From: Patescibacteria group bacterium
GTDB taxonomy: Bacteria > Patescibacteriota > Patescibacteriia > Patescibacteriales > UBA12465
DNA: 54,470 nucleotides
Direction: 5' to 3'
NCBI GenBank assembly: GCA_041651355.1
Contig: JBAZJK010000002.1
Span: forward strand, 1-54,470
Within the stretch, counting starts at the first letter, position 1. The number at the start of each line of letters is the position of its first letter. Made by a program: the position numbers and the translations under genes. This document shows positions 31,179 to 46,517 of the stretch, one piece after another. Under the pieces are notes generated by a model that saw only the letters and a list, made by a program, of their open reading frames with translations, did not search any database and had not been told where the DNA came from.

Positions 31179-32099
31179 GTGAGAAATAAAAAACAGGCAT
31201 GCGCTATTAATGCAAGACAAGAAATGCTTAAAAGGCTGCAGTTGCCCTTAAGATATAATTATATAGCCTGTTTCTTGACCTTGGATTGCAACTTTAATTG
31301 TGATTACTGCATTAACTGGTTTAACGGCAGGAAGAAATATAAAGAAACAGGCATTTCCGGTAAAGAGTGGGTAGAGGGCCTAAATCGTCTCGATTGCCCC
31401 GACGACCTACCCGTTACCATCCAAGGCGGAGAACCGGCCATGCATCCGGATTTTATATGGATAATCAAAAATATCAGGATGGGTTTAAACATCGACATCC
31501 TAACCAATCTCTCATTTAATGTCGAGGAATTCATTAAGAGCGTTAATCCTCTCCGCTTGCGCAGGGAGGCGCCTTATCCCAGCATCAGGGTAAGCTATCA
31601 TCCTTCCCATGCCGATTTAGACGTACTTATGACAAAGGTTTTAAAGATGCAGCATGCCGGGTTTTCCGTAGGGATTTTCGGTATTTTGCACCCCGGCTTC
31701 GAAGAAAATATTCTAAAGGCGCAACAACGCTGCAGAGAGGCGGGAATAGACTTTAGGACAAAAGAGTTCTTGGGTGAGTTTAGGGGGCGCATATACGGCA
31801 CTTATCTGTATCCCGAAGCCATAGGAGGCAGTCGGCAGAAGAGTTGTTTTTGCAGAACGTCCGAACTTATTATCGGACCGGAAGGAAACATTTACCGGTG
31901 TCACCATGACCTCTATGAAGATTCTTCTAAGATAGGCAACCTTTTAGACCCGAACTTCGAAATTATAGATATATTTAGAGAATGTAGCCGGTTCGGAGAA
32001 TGCAATCCTTGCGATATGAAGGTTAAGACGGACCGTTTTCAAGTTTATGGATATACTGCGGTTGAGGTAAAAGATATCCAGGGTAAAGGGGCGCAGTAA
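31179..32099 (+). CDS. Radical SAM protein with short C-terminal Cys domain (distantly related to module B)
   Basis: GTG start. CNFNCDYC, QGGEP, LTNL, VSYHP, CFCR...RC...CNPC. Confidence 0.88.
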   Translation: MRNKKQACAINARQEMLKRLQLPLRYNYIACFLTLDCNFNCDYCINWFNGRKKYKETGISGKEWVEGLNRLDCPDDLPVTIQGGEPAMHPDFIWIIKNIRMGLNIDILTNLSFNVEEFIKSVNPLRLRREAPYPSIRVSYHPSHADLDVLMTKVLKMQHAGFSVGIFGILHPGFEENILKAQQRCREAGIDFRTKEFLGEFRGRIYGTYLYPEAIGGSRQKSCFCRTSELIIGPEGNIYRCHHDLYEDSSKIGNLLDPNFEIIDIFRECSRFGECNPCDMKVKTDRFQVYGYTAVEVKDIQGKGAQ

Positions 32100-32111: not shown

Positions 32112-33875
32112 ATGACGCATAGGCTCAAATCAATAAATAAGAATGGCATAGCAGTTCTTTTGCTTCTGGCGGTATTTACCTATCTTTTTTCGGTTTATGA
32201 TATAAACTTTTACGGCCCTGATGACGCCATATATTTTGCTTATATTTCAAGCGTAGCCGAAGACGGGGATTTAAACGCCGCCGACGACATAGGCCAGCGC
32301 TATCCTTATTATCTTGATTCTGGCAAGATAGGGGTGTCCGGGACGTATAACCTGCCGGATTTCCATAACCACGGCGGGGTAGTTCTCTGGGTTCCTTTTT
32401 ACGCCTACGCCAAGTTTATATATCGGGCCGCCTCAAAATTTAAAGTATCGAGTTTAAGCAGTGAAGGTTTATCGCGGATTATCAGGTGCGCCCTGTCATT
32501 CAGTACGGTTATCTTTGGATTTTGCGCCGTCATCCTTACCTATTTTTTATGCCGCAGTTTTTTTAATAAAAGTAATTCCTTGTTTTCTATTGCAGCAATA
32601 ACTTTAGGGACCCCCTATCTTTATTTTATGTTGGCAGAGCCCGGAAATGCGAATATACTGGCGTCTTTGCTTTCGGTTGTTTCTATCTTGTTTTGCTGTT
32701 ATTTAGTCAACGGAAGAAAGTCGGATTGGTTCTTGTACGGACTATTTTTTTCAATCTGCATAGCGGTTAAACTGGATTTATGGTTTCAACTGATATTCAT
32801 CGGCTTGTTCTTTAGCGCTTTGATTTTATTAAAACAGGCGCCGCCTAGAAACATATTATATTTTATCTTAGGCATCTTGCCGGGCGCGGCATTGATTTTT
32901 ATAAATAACTATATAAAATACGGAACGTTCCATATAGGTGAACTTGGAGTTCTAAATCTCAGAGAATCTTATTTTTTTGAGCAGCTATTTTCATCTTACC
33001 GCGGGATTTTTTATACCTCTCCCATCATTTACCTTTGCTTCTTAGGGGGCATCTTTATAATCGCGGATTTAGTAAAGAATAAGATTAACGCAGCAGGAGG
33101 CCGGTTTGATAGCAAGGGTAGAGAGGTAGACGCCGATTTGTTTTTTGTTATTCTGATTTTCTATGTCCTTATCAAGATATTTGTTATGTCAAAAAATTAT
33201 GCCTGGGGAGGAGGAACTACCTCCGGCAGGCTGTTGCTTACAGAATTTCCTGTATTCGTACTGTTATTTAGCAGGGTATTAGAAATTAAAAATAGACGCT
33301 TGCGTTACGCAATCATTATTGCAGTTATCCCGTTCATCGCCTGGAATCTCCTTGCGCTTTCCGAATATATGACGGGGGTCGACTTTAAATACATTGTTAG
33401 GATGCCTCCGCTAAACATACGGATACCGATTATCAAAAGCGCTTTTTACGCCTTGTTTTATCCCAAGGAACTATATATAAAAATTCAATCGTGCTTTTCT
33501 TTGTTGATAATTGTTTTGGCCGGAATTTTTTATTTAGCTCCTATTTTATCAAGAGATAGGTCCTTGTCTTTTACAAGGCATAAGGCCGTGATGACAAGAT
33601 TGCCTACGCCGCTTATTATATTCACAGTTTGTCTGTTTACGGGCTATACCGCTGTAACCTCTTCAAATATAATAAATAACTCGCGCAACTTAAGATTGCT
33701 AAAGAAGGACGGTTTCTTTGAAAAGACCAAGATAATAGCTCCGTATGAATTCGAAAAAGAGGAAAATATAGGCTCGATGAACGATATGATAGAATACTTC
33801 AGATTAAAGGGCGACCCGGAAAGGGCGGAAGGCATCAAGAGGCATAAAGAAGAAATCTATGGCAGCCCTAGATAA
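32112..33875 (+). CDS. Polytopic membrane protein, probable GT-C-fold glycosyltransferase
   Basis: GPDDAIYFAY acidic motif after TM1, GIFYTSPI, WGGG...GRLL. Many TM segments. Confidence 0.68.
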   Translation: MTHRLKSINKNGIAVLLLLAVFTYLFSVYDINFYGPDDAIYFAYISSVAEDGDLNAADDIGQRYPYYLDSGKIGVSGTYNLPDFHNHGGVVLWVPFYAYAKFIYRAASKFKVSSLSSEGLSRIIRCALSFSTVIFGFCAVILTYFLCRSFFNKSNSLFSIAAITLGTPYLYFMLAEPGNANILASLLSVVSILFCCYLVNGRKSDWFLYGLFFSICIAVKLDLWFQLIFIGLFFSALILLKQAPPRNILYFILGILPGAALIFINNYIKYGTFHIGELGVLNLRESYFFEQLFSSYRGIFYTSPIIYLCFLGGIFIIADLVKNKINAAGGRFDSKGREVDADLFFVILIFYVLIKIFVMSKNYAWGGGTTSGRLLLTEFPVFVLLFSRVLEIKNRRLRYAIIIAVIPFIAWNLLALSEYMTGVDFKYIVRMPPLNIRIPIIKSAFYALFYPKELYIKIQSCFSLLIIVLAGIFYLAPILSRDRSLSFTRHKAVMTRLPTPLIIFTVCLFTGYTAVTSSNIINNSRNLRLLKKDGFFEKTKIIAPYEFEKEENIGSMNDMIEYFRLKGDPERAEGIKRHKEEIYGSPR

Positions 33876-34932
33876 GTTCAAAATAGACAGTCACAAGCTC
33901 ATTTATCATGTCCCTTCTCTGTATGCCTGGTTAAGGGGAGAAGATATCTATCCCATTTACATGGAGATAGGTCTTTATGGAGGTTGTAACCACCGCTGCA
34001 TATTTTGCGCTTTTGACTTCTTGGAATATAAACCCCTGAGCCTTGATGCGGACGTGGCAAAAAGGTTTATATGCATGGCTGGCAAGAAAGGGACGAAATC
34101 CATTCTCTATTCGGGGGAAGGAGAACCGCTTCTTCATAAGGATATCGCGGATATTATTGCTTTTACAAAGAAAAGCGGTATTGATGCAGCCCTTGTGACC
34201 AATGGGGTTATGCTTGATGAGGAAAAGGCCGAAAAAACCTTAAGGCACCTGACATGGATGAAGGTAAGCTTAGATGCAGGCACCAAAGATACATATGCAC
34301 TTATACACGGGACAAAAAAGGAAGACTTTGCTAAGGTAATCGGGAACCTTGAAAATGCCGTCAGGATTAAGAGAAAAAACAAATACGGTTGCAGCATAGG
34401 CGCACAGTATCTCTTATTGCCGCAGAATTACAAAGAGGTTAAAACAGCAACTAAGGTACTGCGCGATGCGGGGATAGATTATATGGTCATAAAACCATAT
34501 TCTCAACATCCCTTTAGCAAAAATAGAATAGACTCCAGATTAAATCTTAAGAGGCTGGACTGTTTAGAAAAAGAGCTTGAGAAATGCTCGAATAACCGCT
34601 TTCAGATAATATTCCGCCGTCACACCATGGAAAGGCTCAAGGCAGACAGGCCGTATAAATATTGTATCGGTGCGCCGTTTACGGCGCTTATAACTACGGA
34701 GGGTAACATTTATCCCTGCAACATTTTTTTAGGGAAAAATGAATTTTCACTCGGGAATATTTACGAAAATAACCTTACTGAAATCTGGAAAGGGAAAAGA
34801 CGCAAGGCGGTAATGGATTTTATCTATAAAAGATGGAAGATATCCAAATGCAGAAAGGCCTGCAGGATGGATGCAATTAACACTTATCTCTGGGAGCTTA
34901 GACATCCTGACAGCCATATTAATTTCATATAA
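33859..34932 (+). CDS. Radical SAM/SPASM-like protein (module C)
   Basis: DSHKLIYH...PIYMEIGLYGGCNHRCIFC, GEGEP, VTNG, SLDAG. CIGAPF...PC...IW...CRKACR. Confidence 0.9.
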   Translation: MAALDKFKIDSHKLIYHVPSLYAWLRGEDIYPIYMEIGLYGGCNHRCIFCAFDFLEYKPLSLDADVAKRFICMAGKKGTKSILYSGEGEPLLHKDIADIIAFTKKSGIDAALVTNGVMLDEEKAEKTLRHLTWMKVSLDAGTKDTYALIHGTKKEDFAKVIGNLENAVRIKRKNKYGCSIGAQYLLLPQNYKEVKTATKVLRDAGIDYMVIKPYSQHPFSKNRIDSRLNLKRLDCLEKELEKCSNNRFQIIFRRHTMERLKADRPYKYCIGAPFTALITTEGNIYPCNIFLGKNEFSLGNIYENNLTEIWKGKRRKAVMDFIYKRWKISKCRKACRMDAINTYLWELRHPDSHINFI

Positions 34933-34938
34933 CAGCCG

Positions 34939-35628
34939 ATGATGACTGACATAGCTGTTTCAATTTGCGTGCCTGCGTTTAACGAAGAAAAAACCCTGAG
35001 GGGAGCCGTTGAGGATTTATTAGAGACTCTGCACTCGAAGGTCGGGGGATTAGATATTATTATCGTTGATGACGGGAGCACGGATTCTACCACGCAGGTT
35101 TCCGTTCAGCTAATGAGGATGCATAAAAATATCAGGGTTATCCGGCATGCAAAAAGAATGGGCATCGGGGCAAGCTACAGAGATGCCTTAAAAATAGCCC
35201 GGGGGGATTATTTTACATGGTTCCCCGCAGACCATGAGAATTCAGCTCAGGAATTTATCCTCTGCCTGCCATATTTAAAAAAAGGCGCGATAGCAACATG
35301 TTATCATCGCGGACAGGACCCCCGGACATATTTGCGGCGTTTTATTTCCCGCGGTTATACCGTTCTTTTAAATATCGTTTTCCGCTTAAATCTAAAATAT
35401 TACAACGGCTTGACAATATTCCCGCTATCGGCCTTGTCTCCGTCCGTTTCTCTTTGCGACGGCTTCTTTTTTACCGCCGAAAATATCATCAAGGCAGTCC
35501 GGAGAGGTTACAAGGTAATAGAACTACCGGCTCCGTTAAAGGGGCGCGCATCCGGAAGCTCCAGTGCGTTGACATTTTCATCTTTCAGACAGGCGATAAG
35601 CGATATCCTGCGTATTTTAAGGGGATAA
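34939..35628 (+). CDS. GT2, polyprenol-phosphate glycosyltransferase (DPM1-like)
   Basis: VSICVPAFNEE, VDDGSTD, GIGASYRDA, FPADHE, R...SSA. Short single domain. Confidence 0.85.
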   Translation: MMTDIAVSICVPAFNEEKTLRGAVEDLLETLHSKVGGLDIIIVDDGSTDSTTQVSVQLMRMHKNIRVIRHAKRMGIGASYRDALKIARGDYFTWFPADHENSAQEFILCLPYLKKGAIATCYHRGQDPRTYLRRFISRGYTVLLNIVFRLNLKYYNGLTIFPLSALSPSVSLCDGFFFTAENIIKAVRRGYKVIELPAPLKGRASGSSSALTFSSFRQAISDILRILRG

Positions 35629-35639
35629 GGATACATCGG

Positions 35640-36701
35640 ATGGGTTTTAAGAGTTCAATACGCTACCTTAGAGTTATAGGCGCACTGTTAAAATCTAATT
35701 TTTTTAAACAGCGCTTACCCATTATCACGATCCTTGGGGTTACTAACCGCTGCAATCTTAGCTGTTGGTATTGTTATGGAGAGCATCCTTACCGTAGCCG
35801 ATGTTGCGATTTCGGCACCGGTGAACTCCTTGAGATAGTAAGGGTTATGCGACAACTAGGCACGCAGCTATTACAACTGCAGGGAGGGGAGCCTCTCCTC
35901 CGCGAAGACTTGGATATCGTTATCGATGAGGCCCATCGTTTTGGGATGGCCTGCGACATGGTCACTAACGGCACTTTGGTTTTGAAGAAAACAGATATAG
36001 TCAGAAGGTTGGATAGAATCTGTATCAGTTTAGACGGGAGGCCGGGTCTGAACGATGCCAACCGCGGAGAAGGCGCATATGGGCGGGCCCTGGAAGGGGT
36101 AGAGTTTGCTTGTTCTTGCGGTTTAGCGGTTCGCCTTAGCGCTGTATTGACCGACAAAACCGCTGCTGAGGACATCGATTGGCTGATAGGTTTAGCGCGC
36201 AGGTATAAAATAACGGTTAATTTTTCACCGCCGTTTTATTTCCGCCCGCAGTTTAGTAAGAATGAAATGACTCCGCACCTCATGGCCGATGTCAAGCTAA
36301 AGTCTCTCCTCCAACATATTATATATCGCAAGAGAGAAAAAGCGCCCATACAATTTAGCCTTGCCAGTTATGGCCTCGCCTTAAACTGGCCGTTTACATA
36401 TAAAAAACGCACCGCAACCCAACAGGAGCTTCCTGCCGGTACCGGATATCCTAAATGCTACCACGGTGACCGTGTTGTATTTATTGACAGTGACGGTAGC
36501 GTTTATCCGTGTTGTAATTTTTGGGGCAGGGCGTATGGCAACATTCGCAACGACGGCATTAAAGCAGCGGTCGGGAATATAAGCAGGGATAATTGCAGAG
36601 CTTGCTATATACCGGCTTATATAGACAGGAACCTTATCTTTGGAATAAATTTTAATGCATGCGGGAATTATGTAAAATACATTATAAGGGGACAGATATG
36701 A
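35640..36701 (+). CDS. Radical SAM protein; start moved from 35298 to ATG 35640
   Basis: GVTNRCNLSCWYC, GGEPLL, VTNG, ISLDG, CYHG...PC...CRAC. The longer ORF overlaps the upstream GT2 by 330 nt. Confidence 0.88.
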   Translation: MGFKSSIRYLRVIGALLKSNFFKQRLPIITILGVTNRCNLSCWYCYGEHPYRSRCCDFGTGELLEIVRVMRQLGTQLLQLQGGEPLLREDLDIVIDEAHRFGMACDMVTNGTLVLKKTDIVRRLDRICISLDGRPGLNDANRGEGAYGRALEGVEFACSCGLAVRLSAVLTDKTAAEDIDWLIGLARRYKITVNFSPPFYFRPQFSKNEMTPHLMADVKLKSLLQHIIYRKREKAPIQFSLASYGLALNWPFTYKKRTATQQELPAGTGYPKCYHGDRVVFIDSDGSVYPCCNFWGRAYGNIRNDGIKAAVGNISRDNCRACYIPAYIDRNLIFGINFNACGNYVKYIIRGQI

Positions 36702-38098
36702 TTGATAAAGGCAATTGGTATAAACTGGAAGACGCAGAAAAGCTACCGCCTCGGGCGAAGAACCTTTTAATGCGCAGATACGTAAATCCGGGTATGGTGA
36801 AGTTATTCGGGTTGCTGGGTTTTGAGGAGGTGTGGGCTTCCTCTGCAGAAGGGATGTACATTACCCTAAACGATGGAAGGCGCATATTGGATATGACGGG
36901 AGGTAACGGCGTCCTGGGGTTAGGGCATAATCATCCCAGGATATTGTCTGTTCGCGAAAAGATAGCCAGGGAAAAAAGACTGGAAATCTGTAAGGCCTTT
37001 CTCTCTCCCTATGTCGCTGCTTTGGCAGCTGATATCTCGAGTCTCTTGCCGGAAGATTTAGACTATTCATTTTTTTGCAATAGCGGTGCCGAAGCAGTGG
37101 AGGGCGCATTAAAAACAGCCGAGAAGTGTTACGGGGGCTCGCGTAAAGGTTTGATATACACGGATCACTCCTTTCACGGCAAGACGCATGCGGCCATGTC
37201 CGTATCAAGCCTTGATGAATCACGCAGCTATTTTCAATTGTTAGAGCAGTGTTACCGGGTGCCCTACGGTAGCATCAACGCCTTTAAGGAAATGATAGAG
37301 AAGCATAGACAGGATGTCTGTGCCTTTATAGTTGAGGCAATTCACGGAACACGCATTATTTTCCCTCCGGAGGGATATATGCGGGAAGTGCGCGACATCT
37401 GTACGAAAAACGAGGTGGTGCTGATACTCGATGAGATATATACGGGATTCGGAAGAACGGGATACTGGTTTGCGTTTGAGGCCGAAGGAATTGTCCCAGA
37501 TATAGTATGTTACTCTAAGGCCTTCGGAGGGGGCAAGGCGAGTATAGCCGGTTATACTGTGCGACGGCCGATATTCTTACGAGCCTACGGTAGCACAAAA
37601 GACTGCATGATGCATTCCTCTACTTTTAGCGGTATGACAGAAGAATGCGCTACCGCGATCGAGGCGTTAAACATATTCAAAGAAGAGGGATTGATAGAAA
37701 AAAGCAGGAAACTCGGCGGGTACCTCGGAGAGCGCCTGTCCGCCCTTAAAATAAAATACCCGGAGCGCGTTAATGACGTGAGGGGTAGAGGTCTATTGTG
37801 GGGAATCGAGCTTAAACCCGTTTTTGGGTTAAATAGGATATCTAAGAATATTTTTTCTGAAGATAATCAGACATTGGCTAGCCTAACCGGAGCGATTGTT
37901 TTGGCAGCCCTGTTCGGCCGGTATAATCTTCTGGCCTATCTGGGATTTACCAGGCGTAACCTCATTGTTTTTTCTCCCGCCCTGATCGTCAACAGGGAAG
38001 AGTTAGACAAAGCAGTTTCCGTCCTGGAAGAGGTCCTTAAGACCCCCTGGCCGGTTCTTATAAGTTCATTTTTAACAAAGCGAACCATAAAGCCATGA
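36698..38098 (+). CDS. Class III PLP-dependent aminotransferase (PatA/HpnO/acetylornithine-AT-like); start moved to ATG 36698
   Basis: LGLGHNHP, NSGAEAVEGALK, SFHGKT, FIVEAIHG, LILDEIYTGFGRTG, PDIVCYSKAFGGG (PLP Lys), RGRGL. ATGA overlap with the upstream stop. Confidence 0.92.
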   Translation: MIDKGNWYKLEDAEKLPPRAKNLLMRRYVNPGMVKLFGLLGFEEVWASSAEGMYITLNDGRRILDMTGGNGVLGLGHNHPRILSVREKIAREKRLEICKAFLSPYVAALAADISSLLPEDLDYSFFCNSGAEAVEGALKTAEKCYGGSRKGLIYTDHSFHGKTHAAMSVSSLDESRSYFQLLEQCYRVPYGSINAFKEMIEKHRQDVCAFIVEAIHGTRIIFPPEGYMREVRDICTKNEVVLILDEIYTGFGRTGYWFAFEAEGIVPDIVCYSKAFGGGKASIAGYTVRRPIFLRAYGSTKDCMMHSSTFSGMTEECATAIEALNIFKEEGLIEKSRKLGGYLGERLSALKIKYPERVNDVRGRGLLWGIELKPVFGLNRISKNIFSEDNQTLASLTGAIVLAALFGRYNLLAYLGFTRRNLIVFSPALIVNREELDKAVSVLEEVLKTPWPVLISSFLTKRTIKP

Positions 38099-39477
38099 AG
38101 GTACTGTTGACAGTCCCTGCCGTTGATACTTGCTATGAGCGCGTCCCGAGCATTGGGCTTATGAACCTCTACCTTATAGGCAAGAGGCTTGGGTGCGATA
38201 TTGAATTATTGGATATATCCGACCTGCCTTATCAGAGAGGACTACGCAGGCTTTTGGCAAAGCGATATGATGTGATCGGCATTTCGTGCAACTTTACTAA
38301 CGCCGCCCCCTACTGTATGCAATATGCCAGAGAGATAAAAGAAAAATACCCCGATACGCTCGTCATCTCCGGAGGTAATCATGCCACCCTCGTTCCGGAA
38401 GACCTTTTATTTAACAAATACGATTATATTCTCTATGGGGAAGGGGAGTTGGTCTTTGCAGATTTTATAGGCAGGATTCTAAAGGGCAAGCCCGCAGATG
38501 ATATGAGCGGGATCTTCTATTTAAAGGGGGGCAAAATAATAAGGAACGCCCCCCGCCAGCCCATAGAGGACCTGGATACCCTGCCGTTTAATGATTATTC
38601 TGATTTTGACCTGGAGTATTATTTCCGGCGTTCAGGCCTGCGCTACATAAGCATGGAAACCTCTCGCGGTTGTATCTATAATTGCTCGTTTTGCTCTACC
38701 GTGAAGATGTGGGGGCATAGATATAGACATAAGAGCCCGGAGAGGGTGCTTAGCGAATTCAGGGTTGCCGGGAAGCTAGGACTTGACTTCATATTTGTAG
38801 AAGACGATGACGCGGCACTTGACGAAGATAACCTGCGCAGCTTCTGCGGACTGCTGGCTCGCGAAGATATAGGCGTGCCCTGGGGGATGGGGGTAGGCTC
38901 CGCGTCCATCAAGAAAGAATCTACGTTTGACCTTATAGCGAAAGCAGGATGCGTTAAGGTTAATGTAAACATAGAATCGGCTAATCCGCGCATTTTGAAG
39001 GAATACCGCAAGCCTTATGCCATAGAAGATAACAGGGCCTTATGCGAAAATTTAAAGAAGAGGAAAATCCTAATTCATAATCATGGTATAATTGGCTTGC
39101 CTGGCGAAAGTATAAAAGAAACGCTTAATACCTATTTTTACCTTATCAAGACATCTCCGCTTTGGCATATCAGTATCTTGGAGCCGAGGCCCGGATCCGA
39201 TTATTGGAGAAGATGGGATAAAAAGGGAGACGTTAGGCAATATAGGCTTTTTGGCAAGGCCAATGTTATACTAGGCCGAAAGAAATTAGCTAGTTATTTA
39301 TTATACAGGATTTTTGCTCTATTTTATTTTTTGAATCCCGCCCGAGTTTACAAGGCGCTCTTCGGAGCTGATAAAGGCACAAGATACAGTTATCGTGTGC
39401 AGTATTATGTCGCTTACAGAACCGTAAAGGCGAACCTTTTTAACCTTTTTTCGGCTAAGATCAACGATGTTAAATAG
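38095..39477 (+). CDS. Cobalamin-binding radical SAM protein (class B methylase-like)
   Basis: PSIGL, GISC, SGGNHAT, GEGE, SRGCIYNCSFC, IES, IIGLPGE. Confidence 0.9.
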   Translation: MKVLLTVPAVDTCYERVPSIGLMNLYLIGKRLGCDIELLDISDLPYQRGLRRLLAKRYDVIGISCNFTNAAPYCMQYAREIKEKYPDTLVISGGNHATLVPEDLLFNKYDYILYGEGELVFADFIGRILKGKPADDMSGIFYLKGGKIIRNAPRQPIEDLDTLPFNDYSDFDLEYYFRRSGLRYISMETSRGCIYNCSFCSTVKMWGHRYRHKSPERVLSEFRVAGKLGLDFIFVEDDDAALDEDNLRSFCGLLAREDIGVPWGMGVGSASIKKESTFDLIAKAGCVKVNVNIESANPRILKEYRKPYAIEDNRALCENLKKRKILIHNHGIIGLPGESIKETLNTYFYLIKTSPLWHISILEPRPGSDYWRRWDKKGDVRQYRLFGKANVILGRKKLASYLLYRIFALFYFLNPARVYKALFGADKGTRYSYRVQYYVAYRTVKANLFNLFSAKINDVK

Positions 39478-41263
39478 TTTTTATAAAAGCACAGAAAAAA
39501 AATATTTTTTGTTTTTTTCTTTTGTATTATTCGCCTCGCTGTTTATTATTTATTTTCCTTGCGTTCATTATCCCCCTCTGAGCGATTACTGGGAAAACTT
39601 TTATTTTTATCAACATCTCGATAAGCTCCCCGGAACAATAAAATGGCTCCATGTTTTAAACCATGATCCTTTTGAGCATATGCGTTATCAGCCCTTATCG
39701 CGCATATTCTCTTATTTTTTATATCTGACATTCGGCTCCAACTTCATCTTTTACAATATTTTAAACTTCATCTTTTATTTTTTGAGCCTCTTGATCCTCT
39801 ACAGGTTCGCCCTTTATTTTATCAAGGATAAGATTCTCATCGCAGCATTCATCTTTCTCTACGCTTTTCTATTCAATCACTTTGATATCCTGCTGTGGTC
39901 CTGTCATATACATATCATCGCGGGCTTCTCTTTATTTCTGCTGGGATTTATTGCCTTCATGGAATACCTTAAAAAGGGGGGGATGCATTTAGTTTTAGCG
40001 AGCGCGCTACTTTTCTTAATAGGAATGTTCTGTTATGAAAGTTTCTTCCTCTGGCCCCTCGGGATTGTCATATTGTCCTCTATAAAAAGCCTTAGAACAC
40101 AAGGAAAGCACGCGGCCAAGCCGCTTAAAAAGCCCATTTTCTTAATATTGGCAAGCGTTTATATTTTTTATTTTCTCGCCTTTCTTTTCACACGCTCTTT
40201 AAAAACATACATTAACCCCCGCTATAGTTTCTACGATTTTTTACAACCGCATGTCTTTGTTCTATCTGCCCTCTCTGTAATTTTTAATATTTACAACAAT
40301 CTCGCTGTAGCTATCCTTCCCATAATCGTTTTCCCCCTTAAGGTGGCAGAAAATATATATATGGCCGGTCCGTTGATTAATTATATCAACCGAGGTAATA
40401 ATTGGTTTGTTTATTCGATGGGCGGCTTATTTAGCTTGATCGTAGCAGCGCTCTTTGTTTATCTCTATAAAAAAAGATACGTTGAAGAATGGAAGATAAT
40501 AGTTTATTTCTTATTTTTGCTAACCGCAGAACCTTATATAATTTTTTTCTGCAGGCTTCTTGATAACGCCTTAGGATATTGCCTCAGCGAATTCAGGTAT
40601 CAGTATATACCCAACGCCTTTATTATCTTAACTGTTGCTTTTATCATTGAAAGGTTCGTTAAGCCATCCAGGCGCAGGAAGAAATTAATATTTGCCTTTT
40701 TGGCGCTAATCTTTTTCTTAAACATTGTTTGTATCCACAGGGTCATGAACATATATAATTACCATCTTTCCGGGCTTCAGAGGATGATCTCCAGCATCAA
40801 AAGAGGCATAGGCCAAGGGTATATAAACAGCAGTAACAGGTTGTATATAGATGAGGACCTGCCGGATTACCTGCCGCATTTATGTTGGAACATTGAAATG
40901 GGGGAATTATTTATTCCCAATGGCAATTATAAATGGATGTTTTCAGAGAAAGAGATGGAGAATTTTACAGATGCCCCTCAGAATGCCAGATGGGTTATCA
41001 GCAAAGAAAACTTCGGTGTTATTGACAAAAGCCAGGAGAGCCTTTCCGGAAAAGGTAGGAAGATAAATACTATCAGAGATAAATACTATATTACGCCAGG
41101 CAAGGACTACGTCTATATTGAATTAGGGTATCGCTACCGGAGGGAGGGGCGCCATGACCGCGAGAGAAGGATGTTTGAGAAGGCGCTGGAGTTGAATCCG
41201 AGAAATGAAGAAGCTAGGGGAGAACTATACCGCTGCCAGAGTAAGGGAACAGCGCTGTTTTAA
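39467..41263 (+). CDS. Polytopic membrane protein with C-terminal TPR, probable GT-C glycosyltransferase
   Basis: PPLSDYWE acidic first loop, YQPLS, about 11 TM segments, FRYQY. Terminal TPR YIELGYRYRREG...FEKALELNP. Confidence 0.7.
   Translation: MLNSFYKSTEKKYFLFFSFVLFASLFIIYFPCVHYPPLSDYWENFYFYQHLDKLPGTIKWLHVLNHDPFEHMRYQPLSRIFSYFLYLTFGSNFIFYNILNFIFYFLSLLILYRFALYFIKDKILIAAFIFLYAFLFNHFDILLWSCHIHIIAGFSLFLLGFIAFMEYLKKGGMHLVLASALLFLIGMFCYESFFLWPLGIVILSSIKSLRTQGKHAAKPLKKPIFLILASVYIFYFLAFLFTRSLKTYINPRYSFYDFLQPHVFVLSALSVIFNIYNNLAVAILPIIVFPLKVAENIYMAGPLINYINRGNNWFVYSMGGLFSLIVAALFVYLYKKRYVEEWKIIVYFLFLLTAEPYIIFFCRLLDNALGYCLSEFRYQYIPNAFIILTVAFIIERFVKPSRRRKKLIFAFLALIFFLNIVCIHRVMNIYNYHLSGLQRMISSIKRGIGQGYINSSNRLYIDEDLPDYLPHLCWNIEMGELFIPNGNYKWMFSEKEMENFTDAPQNARWVISKENFGVIDKSQESLSGKGRKINTIRDKYYITPGKDYVYIELGYRYRREGRHDRERRMFEKALELNPRNEEARGELYRCQSKGTALF
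39730..41214 (+). repeat. 1485-bp direct repeat, copy 1 (copy 2 at 41552-43036)
   Basis: attcggctccaacttcatc ... agaaatgaagaagc recurs at a constant offset of 1822 nt. The translated proteins are identical over this span and no mismatch was seen in spot checks. Confidence 0.92.
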
Positions 41264-41288: not shown

Positions 41289-43070
41289 GTGTTAAAGATG
41301 GTTTTAAGGGTAATAAACGCTAGGGGGAATCTAATATTTTTTTTTCTGCTTCTTGGAGGCCTATTCCTGGCAGCTTATCCCTCATTTTTCTATCCGCCCT
41401 TAAGCGATTATTGGGAGATGTTTTATTCTTTTCATAATCTAGGGCGTTTCCCCGGACAGATAAAATGTCTGCATATTCTGGGCTTTGACCCGCTAGAGCA
41501 AGTAGGATTCCGTCCGCTTGCAAACTTATTCTACTATATTTTTTATCTTTTATTCGGCTCCAACTTCATCTTTTACAATATTTTAAACTTCATCTTTTAT
41601 TTTTTGAGCCTCTTGATCCTCTACAGGTTCGCCCTTTATTTTATCAAGGATAAGATTCTCATCGCAGCATTCATCTTTCTCTACGCTTTTCTATTCAATC
41701 ACTTTGATATCCTGCTGTGGTCCTGTCATATACATATCATCGCGGGCTTCTCTTTATTTCTGCTGGGATTTATTGCCTTCATGGAATACCTTAAAAAGGG
41801 GGGGATGCATTTAGTTTTAGCGAGCGCGCTACTTTTCTTAATAGGAATGTTCTGTTATGAAAGTTTCTTCCTCTGGCCCCTCGGGATTGTCATATTGTCC
41901 TCTATAAAAAGCCTTAGAACACAAGGAAAGCACGCGGCCAAGCCGCTTAAAAAGCCCATTTTCTTAATATTGGCAAGCGTTTATATTTTTTATTTTCTCG
42001 CCTTTCTTTTCACACGCTCTTTAAAAACATACATTAACCCCCGCTATAGTTTCTACGATTTTTTACAACCGCATGTCTTTGTTCTATCTGCCCTCTCTGT
42101 AATTTTTAATATTTACAACAATCTCGCTGTAGCTATCCTTCCCATAATCGTTTTCCCCCTTAAGGTGGCAGAAAATATATATATGGCCGGTCCGTTGATT
42201 AATTATATCAACCGAGGTAATAATTGGTTTGTTTATTCGATGGGCGGCTTATTTAGCTTGATCGTAGCAGCGCTCTTTGTTTATCTCTATAAAAAAAGAT
42301 ACGTTGAAGAATGGAAGATAATAGTTTATTTCTTATTTTTGCTAACCGCAGAACCTTATATAATTTTTTTCTGCAGGCTTCTTGATAACGCCTTAGGATA
42401 TTGCCTCAGCGAATTCAGGTATCAGTATATACCCAACGCCTTTATTATCTTAACTGTTGCTTTTATCATTGAAAGGTTCGTTAAGCCATCCAGGCGCAGG
42501 AAGAAATTAATATTTGCCTTTTTGGCGCTAATCTTTTTCTTAAACATTGTTTGTATCCACAGGGTCATGAACATATATAATTACCATCTTTCCGGGCTTC
42601 AGAGGATGATCTCCAGCATCAAAAGAGGCATAGGCCAAGGGTATATAAACAGCAGTAACAGGTTGTATATAGATGAGGACCTGCCGGATTACCTGCCGCA
42701 TTTATGTTGGAACATTGAAATGGGGGAATTATTTATTCCCAATGGCAATTATAAATGGATGTTTTCAGAGAAAGAGATGGAGAATTTTACAGATGCCCCT
42801 CAGAATGCCAGATGGGTTATCAGCAAAGAAAACTTCGGTGTTATTGACAAAAGCCAGGAGAGCCTTTCCGGAAAAGGTAGGAAGATAAATACTATCAGAG
42901 ATAAATACTATATTACGCCAGGCAAGGACTACGTCTATATTGAATTAGGGTATCGCTACCGGAGGGAGGGGCGCCATGACCGCGAGAGAAGGATGTTTGA
43001 GAAGGCGCTGGAGTTGAATCCGAGAAATGAAGAAGCGGTTTTTGTATTGGAAGAGTTAAGGATGAGGTAA
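41289..43070 (+). CDS. Paralog of 39467..41263: polytopic GT-C-like membrane protein with C-terminal TPR
   Basis: GTG start. PPLSDYWE, FRPLA. Identical to the upstream gene from FGSNFIF to NPRNEEA. Confidence 0.7.
   Translation: MLKMVLRVINARGNLIFFFLLLGGLFLAAYPSFFYPPLSDYWEMFYSFHNLGRFPGQIKCLHILGFDPLEQVGFRPLANLFYYIFYLLFGSNFIFYNILNFIFYFLSLLILYRFALYFIKDKILIAAFIFLYAFLFNHFDILLWSCHIHIIAGFSLFLLGFIAFMEYLKKGGMHLVLASALLFLIGMFCYESFFLWPLGIVILSSIKSLRTQGKHAAKPLKKPIFLILASVYIFYFLAFLFTRSLKTYINPRYSFYDFLQPHVFVLSALSVIFNIYNNLAVAILPIIVFPLKVAENIYMAGPLINYINRGNNWFVYSMGGLFSLIVAALFVYLYKKRYVEEWKIIVYFLFLLTAEPYIIFFCRLLDNALGYCLSEFRYQYIPNAFIILTVAFIIERFVKPSRRRKKLIFAFLALIFFLNIVCIHRVMNIYNYHLSGLQRMISSIKRGIGQGYINSSNRLYIDEDLPDYLPHLCWNIEMGELFIPNGNYKWMFSEKEMENFTDAPQNARWVISKENFGVIDKSQESLSGKGRKINTIRDKYYITPGKDYVYIELGYRYRREGRHDRERRMFEKALELNPRNEEAVFVLEELRMR
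41552..43036 (+). repeat. 1485-bp direct repeat, copy 2
   Basis: See copy 1. Both boundaries were checked by eye. Confidence 0.92.
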
Positions 43071-43210: not shown

Positions 43211-45070
43211 GTGTATAAAACAACCTTTCTCCAGAAGATAGGCCTGATTCTTGTAGGGATATTTTTATGCGCTTTGATTATTGAAGTAAGTTTACGTACC
43301 GCAGGATTTTTAATTATATTAATGCGGGAACGCGATAATGCCGCATCTTTGAGAGATAAAGGGGCTTATCACATTCTATGTTTAGGAGAGTCTACTACCG
43401 CCTTGGGGGGGGAATCGTCTTGGCCCGCGCAGCTGGAGACTGTTTTGAATGAACGTAACAGCGGCATTAGATTTAAAGTAATAAATGGCGGGAGAGAGGA
43501 TATTGATACCGCTACCATTTCCTCAACATTAGAAAATACGCTTGTTAAATATCATCCCGATATGGTTATATCCATGACAGGCATCAACGATGGTCCCCGT
43601 ACAGTGCCCCACGAATACCTCGTACTCGTAAATAAAAAGCCATTTTTTTCGAGACTTAGAGTCTATAAATTAGCGAAAGCGATTTTTTTGCATATTATGA
43701 ACAAAGCGAGGGAAATGGGTATTTATAAAACCCGGGTTTCTCTGAATAATCGGGTTTCTAGTTATGCTGATGCGGGCTACAGGAGCAAGCGTTTTAGGAA
43801 AACAGAGAATATGGCACTTGATACTTTGAAAATCGACCCCAACAATTCCGAGGTCTATAATGAATTAGGGCATCTCTATAACAATCTTAATAGGGTCCGC
43901 GAGGCAGAAGAGATGTTCAAGAAGGCCTTGAAGATCTCTCCGGTGATGTTTAGTGCATATGACGGACTGGGGGCTTGTTATGCTAGCCAGAGCAGGTACG
44001 GCGAGGCAGAAGAGATGTTCAAGAAGGCATTGAAAATCGACCCCAACAATTCCGAGGTCTATAATGAATTAGGGAGGCTCTATAGCAAAACAAAAGACTA
44101 TCATCAGGCAACAGTGATGTTTAAAAAAGCAATGAGCTTAACGATTGCCGAGTCTTCTCAGGATAATGAAATTGACGCAAGGCAAGAAGAGCGCGCCTAT
44201 AGCGAAACAGAAGAAGCATATAGAAAAGCAATAGAGCTTACGCCGCTCGACTATAATAAATACATAGTGCTAGGGTCTTATTACCGAGAGCAAGAAAGAT
44301 ATGCCGAATCGGAAAAAATTCTTAAAGAGGCCATTCGTATAGCCCCAGATAATGCAAGGGCCTATTTTGAATTAGGAACTTGTTATATTAACCAGCATAG
44401 ATATAAGGAACAAGAGAAAATGTTCAGGAAGGTAATCGAGATTAACCCATCTGACAGTGCTGCCTATTGTGAATTGGGTCATCTTTATAGCAGTCATCAG
44501 AGATACGGCGAGGCAGAAGAGATGTTCAAGAAAGCAATAGAGCTTGCCCCGTACGAAATTGAGGCCTATCTAGGATTAGCCACTTGCTATAGAGAGCAGG
44601 GCAAGCTTGAAGGAGTAGAAGAATTAGCCAATTTGCTCAGGAAAAGAGAGATACAGCACGACCGCATTTACGGCATCATAGCCCTCTCTTATTTAGATGA
44701 GGGGCAATTCAAAAAGGCAGAGATTTTTATTAAGAAAGCAAACGAATTCAGGGCCAAGTATTACAATCCCGTAACTTACTATAACTACAGAAGAATCAAG
44801 AAGATTGTTACAGAAAGAGGAATTAAATTTGTCTGTATGCAGTATCCGATGCGCAGCATAGAACCTTTGAAAAAGATTTTTGACTCTAACGAAGACATCA
44901 TCTTCGTAAGCAACGAAAAGATCTTCAAGGAAGAGCTAAAAAAAGCCAGATACGAAGACCTCTTTGTAGACAGTTTTGGTGGCGAGTTTGGTCATGCTAC
45001 TGCCCGCGGCAATAGGCTTATTGCCGAGAATCTCGCGGATACCATAATCAAAGAGGTCATCAGTAAATAG
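43211..45070 (+). CDS. Membrane-anchored SGNH-family protein with inserted TPR array
   Basis: TM LQKIGLILVG.... Block I LGESTT, INGG, TGIND. About 8 TPRs (VYNELG...AEEMFKKAL.I.P). Block V DSFGGEFGHAT. Confidence 0.85.
   Translation: MYKTTFLQKIGLILVGIFLCALIIEVSLRTAGFLIILMRERDNAASLRDKGAYHILCLGESTTALGGESSWPAQLETVLNERNSGIRFKVINGGREDIDTATISSTLENTLVKYHPDMVISMTGINDGPRTVPHEYLVLVNKKPFFSRLRVYKLAKAIFLHIMNKAREMGIYKTRVSLNNRVSSYADAGYRSKRFRKTENMALDTLKIDPNNSEVYNELGHLYNNLNRVREAEEMFKKALKISPVMFSAYDGLGACYASQSRYGEAEEMFKKALKIDPNNSEVYNELGRLYSKTKDYHQATVMFKKAMSLTIAESSQDNEIDARQEERAYSETEEAYRKAIELTPLDYNKYIVLGSYYREQERYAESEKILKEAIRIAPDNARAYFELGTCYINQHRYKEQEKMFRKVIEINPSDSAAYCELGHLYSSHQRYGEAEEMFKKAIELAPYEIEAYLGLATCYREQGKLEGVEELANLLRKREIQHDRIYGIIALSYLDEGQFKKAEIFIKKANEFRAKYYNPVTYYNYRRIKKIVTERGIKFVCMQYPMRSIEPLKKIFDSNEDIIFVSNEKIFKEELKKARYEDLFVDSFGGEFGHATARGNRLIAENLADTIIKEVISK
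43826..44074 (+). repeat. 45-bp exact repeat (43826-43870 and 44030-44074), spacing 204 nt = two TPR units
   Basis: ttgaaaatcgaccccaacaattccgaggtctataatgaattaggg occurs twice. Confidence 0.85.
44711..45065 (+). repeat. 355-bp gene-tail repeat shared with 47724-48078; inner 247 bp (44812-45058) also at 46253-46499
   Basis: Offsets 3013 and 1441 nt. One silent mismatch seen (ggcaat vs ggcaac at 45013). Confidence 0.9.
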
Positions 45071-45089
45071 CCCTGCAGTATATATACAA

Positions 45090-46514
45090 ATGCCGATTAA
45101 GCAAAAAGTAAGCCTGGTATTATTTGGGATATTGCTGTGTTGTTTTATTCTTGAGTTGGGGCTGCAATTGTCGTCTTTCGCATTCCTGTCATTAAGAAAG
45201 CATAAAAATAAAACACCACTTAAATCTTTATCTAATGGTGTCAGCTACTGTATTTTATGCCTGGGTGAATCAACCACAGCCTTAGGAGAAGATAGCTCTT
45301 GGCCTACGCAACTCGAAAAGATATTAAATGAGAATAAGAACGGAATAAGTTACAAGGTTATAAATATGGGTAGAATGGCGGTTGAATCCTCAGCTGTGCT
45401 GTCGCTCCTAAAAGCAGACTTGGATAAATACAATCCTGATATGGTAATTACTATGATAGGCGTGAATGACTGGGTAGGGACCATACCGTATCAAGATTCT
45501 CGGGTTTTTAGAATCAAGTTATTTATAAGCAGACTGAAAAGCTACAAATTAGCAAGATTAGTTTGGCTGCATACGATAAATAAGGTTAATCAGGCGGCGC
45601 AATCTAAGAAGCAGAAGGATGGGGGGTCTCTTAGAATTTCATCTATTTCTAGCGGCGGAAAGCAGTTAGGTGCAGAAGCGGCTTTATCTAACGGGCAGGC
45701 ATTCGTTGAGTTAGGGTATTATTATTATGAGAGAGGGGAATATAAAGAAGCAGAGCATGCTTTTAAGAAAGCAATAAGTGCGGATTCCCAGGATGCAGCT
45801 GGGCATATCGGCTTAGGGCAATGTTATAGAGAACAGGACAGGAATAAAGAGATGGAGAAGGCGGCAAAACAAGCGATTAGGCTTGACCCCGGCAACGCAG
45901 ATGCCTATATCCTGCTTGGAAATGCCTATCAGGATCGGGAAGATTACCGGAGTGCGGAAGAGGCGCTGAAACAGGCCGTCGAACTTAATCCGAGGTGGGA
46001 ACCCGCTTATACAGAATTAGGAAGTTGTTATAGGAAACAAGGAAAGGTAAAAGAGGCGCACGACCTAGCTAAAAGAATTATAAAGGAAGGGCTGGTTAAT
46101 GATCGTCTTTATGGTTTTGTGGCTACTTCTTATGTGGAGGAAGGCAGATATTATGAAGCCGGCGAATATTATAGAAAGGCAGAAGAATTTCGGTTGAGAT
46201 ATTATAATCCTGCTACGAGGCACAATTATAATAAACTCAGAGAAATCCTGGTAGAAAGAGGAATTAAATTTGTCTGTATGCAGTATCCGATGCGCAGCAT
46301 AGAACCTTTGAAAAAGATTTTTGACTCTAACGAAGACATCATCTTCGTAAGCAACGAAAAGATCTTCAAGGAAGAGCTAAAAAAAGCCAGATACGAAGAC
46401 CTCTTTGTAGACAGTTTTGGTGGCGAGTTTGGTCATGCTACTGCCCGCGGCAACAGGCTTATTGCCGAGAATCTCGCGGATACCATAATCAAAGAGGTCT
46501 CTTGGAAGGAGTAA
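45090..46514 (+). CDS. Membrane-anchored SGNH-family protein with inserted TPR array (paralog 2)
   Basis: LGESTT, INMG, IGVND, about 4 TPRs, identical C-terminal GEFGHAT block. Confidence 0.85.
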   Translation: MPIKQKVSLVLFGILLCCFILELGLQLSSFAFLSLRKHKNKTPLKSLSNGVSYCILCLGESTTALGEDSSWPTQLEKILNENKNGISYKVINMGRMAVESSAVLSLLKADLDKYNPDMVITMIGVNDWVGTIPYQDSRVFRIKLFISRLKSYKLARLVWLHTINKVNQAAQSKKQKDGGSLRISSISSGGKQLGAEAALSNGQAFVELGYYYYERGEYKEAEHAFKKAISADSQDAAGHIGLGQCYREQDRNKEMEKAAKQAIRLDPGNADAYILLGNAYQDREDYRSAEEALKQAVELNPRWEPAYTELGSCYRKQGKVKEAHDLAKRIIKEGLVNDRLYGFVATSYVEEGRYYEAGEYYRKAEEFRLRYYNPATRHNYNKLREILVERGIKFVCMQYPMRSIEPLKKIFDSNEDIIFVSNEKIFKEELKKARYEDLFVDSFGGEFGHATARGNRLIAENLADTIIKEVSWKE

Positions 46515-46517
46515 TTC

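Follow-up and report, generated by a model that had tools for sequence, protein, structure and literature searches.

The decoration of surface polysaccharides in the periplasm, by way of lipid-monophosphate sugar donors, drives antigenic diversity, and the known systems employ either plain sugars or NAD-dependent tailoring. One of the closest described examples is the pentofuranose system of Citrobacter youngae O1/O2, composed of the synthase PPPRS, a flippase, the GT-C enzyme GT136 and an epimerase of the short-chain dehydrogenase/reductase (SDR) type, in which synthase, flippase and GT-C enzyme equip a Wzm/Wzt-type O-antigen with side chains of pentofuranose, added in the periplasm (Kelly et al. 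2024, PMC11127046). Knockout and complementation of the SDR gene (orf13) switches which side-chain pentofuranose is added, and the authors argue that the SDR epimerises the lipid-linked sugar in the cytoplasm; no aminotransferase is described in that work. Here, five consecutive genes that may follow a comparable logic are analysed. They lie in a stretch of 54,470 nucleotides, called the window throughout, that corresponds to positions 1 to 54,470 of contig JBAZJK010000002.1 in an assembly deposited as a Patescibacteria group bacterium (GCA_041651355.1). In gene order they code for a radical S-adenosylmethionine (radical SAM) enzyme (rSAM1), a family 2 glycosyltransferase (GT2), a second radical SAM enzyme (rSAM2), a class III aminotransferase (AT) and a cobalamin-binding radical SAM enzyme (B12-rSAM). 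We tentatively read them as the core of a conserved Omnitrophota module that makes a tailored amino-sugar donor on polyprenyl phosphate and with it decorates a Wzm/Wzt-exported polysaccharide after polymerisation, and would give this reading slightly less than an even chance. A full-text search of the literature turned up no paper describing the module.

Relation to described pathways

The likeness to the C. youngae system, and to the classical GtrA/GtrB/GtrC systems, lies in the Wzm/Wzt-type backbone. It would extend to a dedicated polyprenyl-monophosphate sugar synthase, to the cytoplasmic tailoring of a lipid-linked sugar and to a large polytopic transferase with a soluble C-terminal domain, and the cultured relatives of the AT sit beside a PPPRS-like UbiA protein and an SDR. 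However, the loader in the window would be a GT2 and not a UbiA protein, the tailoring would be carried out by radical SAM enzymes together with a class III AT, no small flippase gene is found in the window and none of the known GT-C families is matched by the transferase candidates.

The Arn pathway, which places L-Ara4N on lipid A, offers a second parallel: the sequence of carbonyl formation, amination, transfer by a GT2 onto undecaprenyl phosphate and extracytoplasmic delivery would be shared, and the GT2 of the window aligns over its full length with ArnC. An Arn-like logic, with a lipid-carrier GT2 and a membrane transferase, had been put forward in a preliminary description of this DNA, and it fits the context of the locus. 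The window nevertheless has no ArnA-type NAD dehydrogenase/decarboxylase, DegT-type ArnB, ArnD or ArnE/F, but just a weakly ArnC-like GT2 and PMT_2-type proteins. Moreover, the AT belongs to class III, the carbonyl would be produced by a radical SAM enzyme and the amination would probably follow lipid loading.

In mycobacteria, PpgS (Rv3631) and Rv3779 are responsible for the galactosamine decoration of arabinogalactan: a short GT2 of the soluble kind produces an amino sugar linked to polyprenyl phosphate, and a GT-C enzyme moves the sugar to the wall polysaccharide. The GT2 of the window spans almost the whole PpgS model (residues 7–197 against 2–193 of 226), at a score of 33.8 for a cut-off of 370. 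The mycobacterial amino group comes from UDP-GalNAc and not, as proposed here, from transamination on the pathway. Chemically, the module would resemble the C6' tailoring of gentamicin by the cobalamin radical SAM methylase GenK, the dehydrogenase GenQ and the class III aminotransferase GenB1 (likewise NeoQ/NeoB and KanQ/KanB), that is, the same three chemical steps at an exocyclic sugar carbon with a class III AT and a cobalamin radical SAM enzyme. The aminoglycoside enzymes differ in acting on soluble pseudo-oligosaccharides and in using a flavin dehydrogenase, and the AT of the window is closest to PigE and YgjG. By analogy, then, the module would work like a three-component or Arn-type decoration pathway with a chemistry resembling that of gentamicin tailoring.

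Gene layout and locus context

Pfam searches and the list of open reading frames (ORFs) bore out five consecutive genes with the domains first ascribed to them (Table 1). The ORF list puts the start of rSAM2 at 35298, but the gene as called on a public contig of identical sequence begins at 35640, and this start was adopted; the start of the AT ORF is listed as 36659/36698. From rSAM1 to B12-rSAM the spacing is +6, +11, −4 and −4 nucleotides (nt), so that 4-nt overlaps join rSAM2 to the AT and the AT to B12-rSAM, and the set overlaps the upstream gene by 17 nt and the downstream gene by 11 nt. In the co-directional array at 209–43070 no intergenic gap is larger than 51 nt, and in a promoter/terminator scan the terminator-like sites of the array showed no excess over shuffled sequence. 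This makes the five genes part of a much longer operon-like array and not a unit of their own. All five proteins are predicted to be soluble. The claimed absence of an NAD-type sugar dehydrogenase and of a DegT/DnrJ-type aminotransferase holds: among the plus-strand ORFs of at least 100 amino acids (aa) in the window there were no Pfam matches to Epimerase, UDPG_MGDP_dh or GFO-type dehydrogenases, or to DegT_DnrJ_EryC1.

The same genes are carried, identically, by a longer contig (ENA ERZ27247363, k141_2772170, 81,335 bp) that reaches 41.5 kb further upstream of the window. The 10 kb that precede the window (L014:3991-9974) contain a GT4, a WecA-type Glycos_transf_4 protein, a Glf-like flavoenzyme, Wzm and Wzt+Wzt_C. 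These are followed, inside the window, by a WbbB-like, polymerase-like protein of 1,739 aa with the architecture GT2-GT2-GT4-rSAM. The locus further holds enzymes of the GT9, GT2 and GT4 families, two proteins of the PMT_2 type and a GH5 protein, as well as GDSL-TPR proteins, a transketolase split over two genes, a YfhO-like protein and some 18 radical SAM domains in all. Since the WecA-type, Wzm and Wzt+Wzt_C genes lie directly upstream, the whole 54-kb window is, judged by its genes, the tail of an ABC-transporter-dependent (Wzm/Wzt) O-polysaccharide-type locus.

The closest homologues of the AT (58–69% identity) are all named Omnitrophota or carry the NCBI label 'uncultured Planctomycetia'. 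A search for the AT in 400 genomes of the bin's own phylum (0.7–1.2 Mb) returned just three weak matches (34–41%), so that these genomes add nothing on synteny, and the gene is single-copy in the source bin (G000), which comprises 11 contigs and 1.07 Mb and of which the window forms the entire contig C2. The named best matches of the HypE gene on k141_2772170 are exclusively Omnitrophota. The contig of the window is thus most likely Omnitrophota DNA that was mis-binned into a small-genome metagenome-assembled genome. Its tetranucleotide composition correlates with that of bin contig C1 (r=0.88), a similarity that may explain the mis-binning.

Conservation of the gene set in Omnitrophota

Related loci (numbered L002 and so on) were collected from contigs with AT homologues and by an alignment-based scan of species-representative genomes, and their ORFs were compared by BLAST with the proteins of the window. 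With the single AT protein as query against the genome contigs nothing was found, whereas the alignment query succeeded. Fifteen further independent loci were obtained; L003 was left out as a second assembly of the L002 locus. The order of the module recurs in these 15 Omnitrophota loci, with AT identities of 53–69%, an arrangement far beyond chance. Absence of such co-occurrence in other genomes, which would have spoken against the preliminary description, is thereby disposed of.

A closer inspection of the loci shows that some of the five genes are more constant than others. Of the 15 loci with upstream DNA, 14 have an rSAM2 orthologue (47–57% identity) immediately before the AT, and in the fifteenth it lies 1.9 kb upstream. 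rSAM1 is always paired with GT2, and a GT2 orthologue is present in all eight loci with the full 10 kb of upstream DNA. The rSAM1-GT2 pair stands directly before rSAM2 or is set apart from it; one to three GDSL-TPR genes intervene in L004 and L020, and a radical SAM and an oxidoreductase gene do so in L005. B12-rSAM is present in 10 of 13 assessable loci, directly after the AT in seven and within three genes in three; L005, L008 and L052 have none over a distance of 10 kb. The contiguous five-gene order of the window is reproduced exactly in L002, L015, L016 and L018.

Other genes recur around the five. Downstream, these are proteins with 12 transmembrane (TM) helices and a C-terminal TPR region (12-TM/TPR proteins; 9 loci) and the split transketolase (7 loci). 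Upstream, they are a GT9, a small radical SAM protein like that at 31179, a 12-TM protein like that at 32112 and a paralogue of rSAM1 with 30% identity. The flanks beyond these companions vary from locus to locus. Conservation thus reaches beyond the five genes, with rSAM2-AT and rSAM1-GT2 together as the invariant core.

The aminotransferase

The AT reaches 262.5 bits on PF00202 (gathering cut-off 30.5), which places it in class III. Lys274 and Asp245 are invariant in 28 homologues, and the SK..GG lysine motif, DEIxTGxGRTG and VRGRGL align with PigE and YgjG. These are also the nearest solved relatives in a PDB sequence search (PigE, 4ppm, 8e-61; the putrescine aminotransferase YgjG, 4uox, 2.5e-57). 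Both enzymes interconvert terminal amines and aldehydes, and for this reason an aldehyde or exocyclic carbonyl is weakly favoured as the substrate of the AT. No NeoB/KanB/GenB-type chain appeared at E≤1e-40 in that search. The aminoglycoside enzymes first named as analogues are hence loose ones, and so is the alcohol dehydrogenase BtrN named as a precedent, which lies outside the top 50 fold matches of rSAM2.

With respect to NCBIfam, the AT stays under every cut-off: 302.1 versus 850 for PigE (NF053554), 252.7 versus 612 for putrescine aminotransferase (NF008570) and 203.7 versus 658.7 for TIGR03372, and it thus fails the equivalog cut-offs for putrescine aminotransferase (YgjG/PatA) and PigE. 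That it might be a housekeeping putrescine or ornithine enzyme lying in the cluster by chance is suggested by the name 'putrescine aminotransferase' given to homologues in some databases and by the presence of YgjG among the best solved relatives. We regard this as barely credible. Not only is the putrescine score low, but the cut-offs for ArgD and ornithine aminotransferase are not reached either, the 4-nt overlaps tie the gene to rSAM2 and B12-rSAM, and the glycan context is kept across phyla: all 74 AT relatives included in a tree (38–69% identity) lie among glycosyltransferase, radical SAM or sugar genes. In addition, argD was found in 176 of 176 complete Omnitrophota genomes according to a preprint, which makes it probable that a housekeeping enzyme exists besides the AT. 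The housekeeping identity, named beforehand as an outcome that would undo the proposal, thus finds no support.

Two AT paralogues, 61% and 44% identical to that of the window, lie about 26 kb apart on contig CAZSDJ010000004.1 of one Omnitrophota-type genome (L052 and L035). Each has its own radical SAM and glycan context, and the second directly follows a PMT_2 gene.

Relatives with an SDR and a UbiA-family protein

Homologues with 38–44% identity to the AT occur in Ruminiclostridium papyrosolvens, R. josui, Anaerobacterium chartisolvens, Paenibacillus athensensis, Chengkuizengella and Reinekea, and also in the actinomycetes Streptosporangium, Nonomuraea, Streptomyces and Micromonospora. In these cultured relatives the AT adjoins an extended NAD-dependent SDR of about 350 aa. 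In Bacillota and Reinekea this SDR immediately precedes the AT, in the slot occupied by rSAM2 in the window, and in actinomycetes it immediately follows the AT. Also beside the AT is a protein of the UbiA family, with 230 bits on the model for decaprenyl-phosphate phosphoribosyltransferase against a cut-off of 234, and the clusters usually add an Exo_endo_phos protein, Wzx and GT2s. The comparison supports the view that the SDR and the UbiA protein fill the roles that rSAM2 and GT2 would have in the window.

UbiA-type synthases move ribose-5-phosphate from PRPP directly onto polyprenyl phosphate. The SDR/UbiA clusters thus have no nucleotide-sugar stage, and therefore oxidation and amination must occur on the lipid in them. 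Because the AT family is tied to enzymes that load the sugar directly onto polyprenyl phosphate, the GT2 of the window would act first and not last. The preliminary description had placed it last, after amination and methylation, which is probably wrong; the family relationship suggests instead that the tailoring takes place on the lipid. The formation of a carbonyl by a radical SAM enzyme and of an amine by the AT is likewise supported, indirectly, since an SDR adjoins the AT in the cultured relatives where rSAM2 does so here.

In a maximum-likelihood tree of the 74 ATs, that of the window falls in a clade of 16, all partnered by rSAM2, with a support of 100/100. This clade joins a group made up of a second clade with radical SAM partners (Omnitrophota, Nitrospiraceae, Myxococcota) and the SDR-UbiA clade of Bacillota and Reinekea, these last two being united with weaker support (91/64). 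In the second clade the AT has different radical SAM families or B12-rSAMs within two genes. The SDR-UbiA clade of actinomycetes lies across the midpoint root from the group containing the AT of the window. This is the pattern to be expected if the AT depends on an oxidoreductase next to it, and if in anaerobes a radical enzyme takes that part.

A set of UbiA protein, extended SDR and class III AT, often with an Exo_endo_phos protein, was seen at L043:5563-13363, L054:7897-12419, L042:8017-11392 and about 30 further loci. This set is shared by cultured Bacillota, Reinekea and many actinomycetes, and its probable product is a lipid-linked amino-pentose; a literature search found no paper on it. 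As it occurs in cultured Ruminiclostridium, Paenibacillus, Reinekea and actinomycetes, it offers a tractable route to the AT substrate that could be transferred to the uncultured Omnitrophota.

The glycosyltransferase

When the profile of GT2 orthologues was compared with the PDB, full-length alignments were obtained solely with DPMS (5mlz, residues 4–226) and ArnC (9hwj, 6–227), while GtrB aligned over residues 3–151. Among NCBIfam models, full-length alignments were given by PpgS and AglJ, far below their cut-offs. Asp44, Asp45, Asp98 and Glu100 are invariant. No TM helix is predicted in GT2; cationic amphipathic helices are placed at residues 134–151 and 212–229. GT2 is probably a polyprenyl-phosphate sugar synthase.

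The top-scoring matches, on the other hand, are polymer builders (chondroitin synthase, PgaC), and the locus contains a large polymerase and several other glycosyltransferases. The module could on these grounds supply a modified nucleoside diphosphate sugar (NDP-sugar) to cytoplasmic main-chain enzymes, with GT2 acting as an ordinary Leloir transferase and with neither a lipid-monophosphate donor nor a periplasmic step. This is quite unlikely in our view: the polymer builders, despite their better scores, match just the N-terminal, nucleotide-binding half of GT2, and large polytopic proteins, expected only where there are extracytoplasmic lipid-monophosphate donors, follow the module in nine loci, with five further such proteins in the window.

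The radical SAM enzymes

The three radical SAM enzymes exceed the PF04055 cut-off of 29.5 bits (rSAM1, 74; rSAM2, 51; B12-rSAM, 73), and their CX3CX2C motifs are invariant (Cys43/Cys47/Cys50 in rSAM1, Cys38/Cys42/Cys45 in rSAM2 and Cys193/Cys197/Cys200 in B12-rSAM). Further invariant cysteines are Cys178, Cys269, Cys287, Cys331 and Cys335 in 11 rSAM1 orthologues and Cys128, Cys273, Cys291, Cys292, Cys319 and Cys322 in rSAM2. Despite the Pfam SPASM hits, neither protein has the seven C-terminal cysteines of a full SPASM domain; the four to five that are conserved after the core would fit a single auxiliary cluster of the Twitch-like kind.

rSAM1 finds its best PDB sequence matches in BlsE and DesII. 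In Foldseek, DesII fills the top six places, followed by SuiB and BlsE, for a model with a pLDDT of 69 and a poor C-terminus. It resembles DesII and BlsE. Probably it pre-modifies the sugar, whether as a nucleotide sugar or once on the lipid; the reaction may be a deoxygenation, a decarboxylation or an oxidation. For rSAM2 (AF2 model, pLDDT 87) the top Foldseek matches are BlsE, SuiB, SkfB, anSME and MoaA, with TM-scores of about 0.55–0.6. anSME converts an alcohol or thiol to an aldehyde. BtrN was absent from the PDB sequence matches of rSAM1 and rSAM2 and from the top 50 Foldseek matches of either. The likeness to DesII, BlsE, BtrN and anSME thus consists of the CX3CX2C motif and a short C-terminal set of cysteines, DesII and BlsE being the best sequence and fold matches of rSAM1, and BlsE and anSME among the best of rSAM2. 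It is a distant one, with identities of just 17–20%, TM-scores in the range given above and BtrN missing from the rSAM2 top 50.

From its translational coupling to the AT, rSAM2 is the candidate carbonyl-forming enzyme. The earlier idea that a radical SAM enzyme makes the carbonyl stands to the extent that rSAM2 is always near the AT and that an SDR adjoins the AT in cultured relatives; it falls short in that it explains one of the two non-B12 radical SAM enzymes.

An NAD-type oxidoreductase was also observed beside an rSAM2-type gene and an AT in two loci, a GFO_IDH_MocA protein at L005:7899-8903 and an SDR at L036:8992-9939.

The orthologues of B12-rSAM are 65–69% identical, which makes it the best-conserved member of the module, and yet it is facultative. 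Its best NCBIfam matches (BchE, HpnJ and P-methyltransferase) are all below cut-off. Among solved structures, the methylases TokK and CysS score best and the non-methylases OxsB and AprD4 come close behind; C-methylation is accordingly our default guess for its activity. A role in phosphonate metabolism, raised by the P-methyltransferase-like matches, was rejected, as PEP mutase or a related gene is not in the window.

Radical SAM, GT2, class III AT and B12-rSAM enzyme types together mirror the hopanoid side-chain genes. HpnJ is, moreover, the second-best NCBIfam match of B12-rSAM (127 bits), and rSAM2 weakly matches HpnH. It could thus be asked whether the product is a glycan at all, rather than that of a hopanoid-like side-chain set (analogues of HpnH, HpnI, HpnO and HpnJ), a polyamine pathway or peptide maturation. 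Such a product is highly improbable. The scores lie far below the cut-offs (127.2 versus 577.6 for HpnJ and 47.6 versus 225 for HpnH), squalene-hopene cyclase, precursor peptide and polyamine genes were not seen in the window or the neighbouring loci, and every neighbour is a glycan-assembly gene. The hopanoid (Hpn) analogy is rejected on these scores together with the context.

The candidate transferases

The module is followed by two tandem paralogues of the 12-TM/TPR type (Table 1), which diverge at their N-termini and have 12 predicted TM helices and a soluble TPR tail each. Pro36, Pro37, Ser39, Asp40 and Trp42 are invariant after TM1, which places Asp40 in the first loop. Their comparison with the PMT_2 proteins of the window gave an hhalign probability of 0.5%, there was no cross-family BLAST relation to YfhO and the other large membrane proteins of the window, and a PDB profile search returned matches on the TPR region alone. 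The best hint from a lenient Pfam search, Glucos_trans_II, is sub-threshold (E=0.019). The description of these genes as GT-C genes thus agrees with the GT-C-like topology and the first-loop Asp, but is not backed by any sequence relation to PMT_2, to YfhO or, outside the TPR region, to PDB chains. The longer contig k141_2772170 ends just past the B12-rSAM gene, next to the 12-TM/TPR repeat.

Proposed pathway

On the basis of the genes present, their enzyme classes, the order in which they are kept, their glycan setting and the correspondence with SDR and UbiA, a pathway can be proposed whose substrates and chemical steps would be as follows. GT2, by its full-length similarity to DPMS and ArnC, would transfer a common sugar to polyprenyl phosphate, with an NDP-sugar as donor. 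rSAM1 would pre-modify the sugar, before or after this loading. rSAM2 would abstract a hydrogen atom and oxidise a sugar hydroxyl to a carbonyl, as its invariant coupling to the AT and the SDR neighbour of the AT in cultured relatives suggest. The AT, a transaminase by class, would then turn this carbonyl, probably an aldehyde or exocyclic one, into an amine with an amino-acid donor. B12-rSAM, where present, would add a further radical modification, possibly a C-methyl group. Finally, a 12-TM/TPR protein would, to judge by its topology, carry out the periplasmic transfer of the finished sugar to the glycan.

The order of events is where this scheme meets its strongest competitor. In the classic aminosugar pathway, Arn, the sugar is tailored as a soluble nucleotide sugar, and the same order could apply here: radical SAM enzymes, AT and B12-rSAM would act in solution, GT2 would load the finished amino sugar and a GT-C enzyme would transfer it. 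The closest solved relatives of rSAM1 and rSAM2, DesII and BlsE, do use nucleotide-linked sugars, and the predicted solubility of all five proteins is compatible with such an order. We nonetheless consider it unlikely. The homologous ATs go together with lipid-phosphoribose synthases of the UbiA type, which bypass a nucleotide-sugar stage, neither the window nor the 10 kb upstream contains a nucleotidyltransferase or other dedicated gene for NDP-sugar supply, and the GT2 gene precedes rSAM2, AT and B12-rSAM rather than trailing them.

For tailoring on the lipid, a more specific form can be stated: the radical SAM enzymes would act directly on polyprenyl-phosphate sugars at the membrane, rSAM2 would, in strict anaerobes, have taken over the carbonyl step of the SDR and would supply a dedicated class III AT, the product, with the cobalamin enzyme also taking part, would be a novel amino (perhaps C-methyl) donor and the 12-TM/TPR proteins would form a new transferase family. 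In this full form the proposal is doubtful. If it were true, a class III AT family present in at least six phyla would be dedicated to lipid-linked sugars, radical SAM and cobalamin chemistry would operate on lipid-linked glycan donors, anaerobes would be seen to swap NAD-dependent envelope-sugar steps for radical enzymes, and the amino (possibly C-methyl) sugar donor would be of a kind not yet seen in surface glycans.

Several observations weigh against a lipid-linked pathway of this type. The AT is just 38–44% identical to its SDR/UbiA-linked relatives, and its substrate class may differ; from the tree, no direction of replacement between SDR and radical SAM enzyme is claimed. GT2 is devoid of the TM helices found in DPMS, GtrB and ArnC. 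The fold matches of the radical SAM enzymes are generic and do not separate a dehydrogenase from other chemistries, the dehydrogenase BtrN being outside the top 50 of rSAM2, and since L005 and L036 carry both an rSAM2-like gene and an oxidoreductase, rSAM2 may do something other than oxidation. On the membrane side, the GT-C identity of the transferase candidates is unsupported at the level of sequence, with no known family matched, and no gene in the window fits a small flippase of the GtrA/SMR type.

Neighbouring genes

Table 1. Genes of the five-gene set and of its surroundings in the window.
Feature	Position	Strand	Basis	Remark
rSAM1	33859-34932	+	Pfam Radical_SAM 1.9e-20 and SPASM 1.7e-9	357 aa
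GT2	34939-35628	+	Pfam PF00535 Glycos_transf_2 1.1e-25	229 aa
rSAM2	35640-36701	+	Pfam Radical_SAM and SPASM	353 aa
AT, class III (omega-type) pyridoxal-phosphate aminotransferase	36698-38098	+	PF00202 Aminotran_3 7e-78	466 aa
B12-rSAM (class B)	38095-39477	+	PF02310 8e-15 and PF04055 3e-20	460 aa
12-TM protein with C-terminal TPR, candidate transferase	39467-41263	+	TM count	
Tandem paralogue of 39467-41263	41289-43070	+	94.6% aa identity over 554 residues	
Small radical SAM protein	31179-32099	+	Pfam	
12-TM protein of another family	32112-33875	+	TM count	587 aa
Three GDSL/SGNH-TPR genes	43211-48083	+	Pfam	
Split transketolase	48122-48946, 48943-49914	+	Pfam	
Second short GT2	49955-50698	+	Pfam	
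YfhO-like membrane protein	50823-53681	+	Pfam	

In L004, L005, L022 and L052, as well as in L002, L016, L019 and L020, the module has upstream of it orthologues of the small radical SAM protein and of the 12-TM protein that precede rSAM1 in the window; a protein of the 12-TM type is kept in this position in six loci. Pfam and NCBIfam give no match for this 12-TM protein, and BLAST does not relate it to any other large membrane protein encoded in the window; it might serve as the flippase that is missing, or as one more transferase.

On the downstream side, the GDSL-TPR genes change place between genomes, lying between GT2 and rSAM2 in L004 and L020 and beside rSAM2 in L017, L021 and L024. The N-terminal half of the transketolase (TK_N) occurs within 10 kb downstream in L004, L005, L019, L022, L025 and L052, with TK_C alongside in five of them (the L019 locus ends there), and in L023 a homologue of TK_C lies upstream of rSAM1. 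Three loci, L005, L025 and L052, have a YfhO homologue after the transketolase. The transketolase, the second GT2 and the YfhO-like protein may together constitute a second lipid-carrier decoration system, or may serve the supply of a ketose or heptose precursor.

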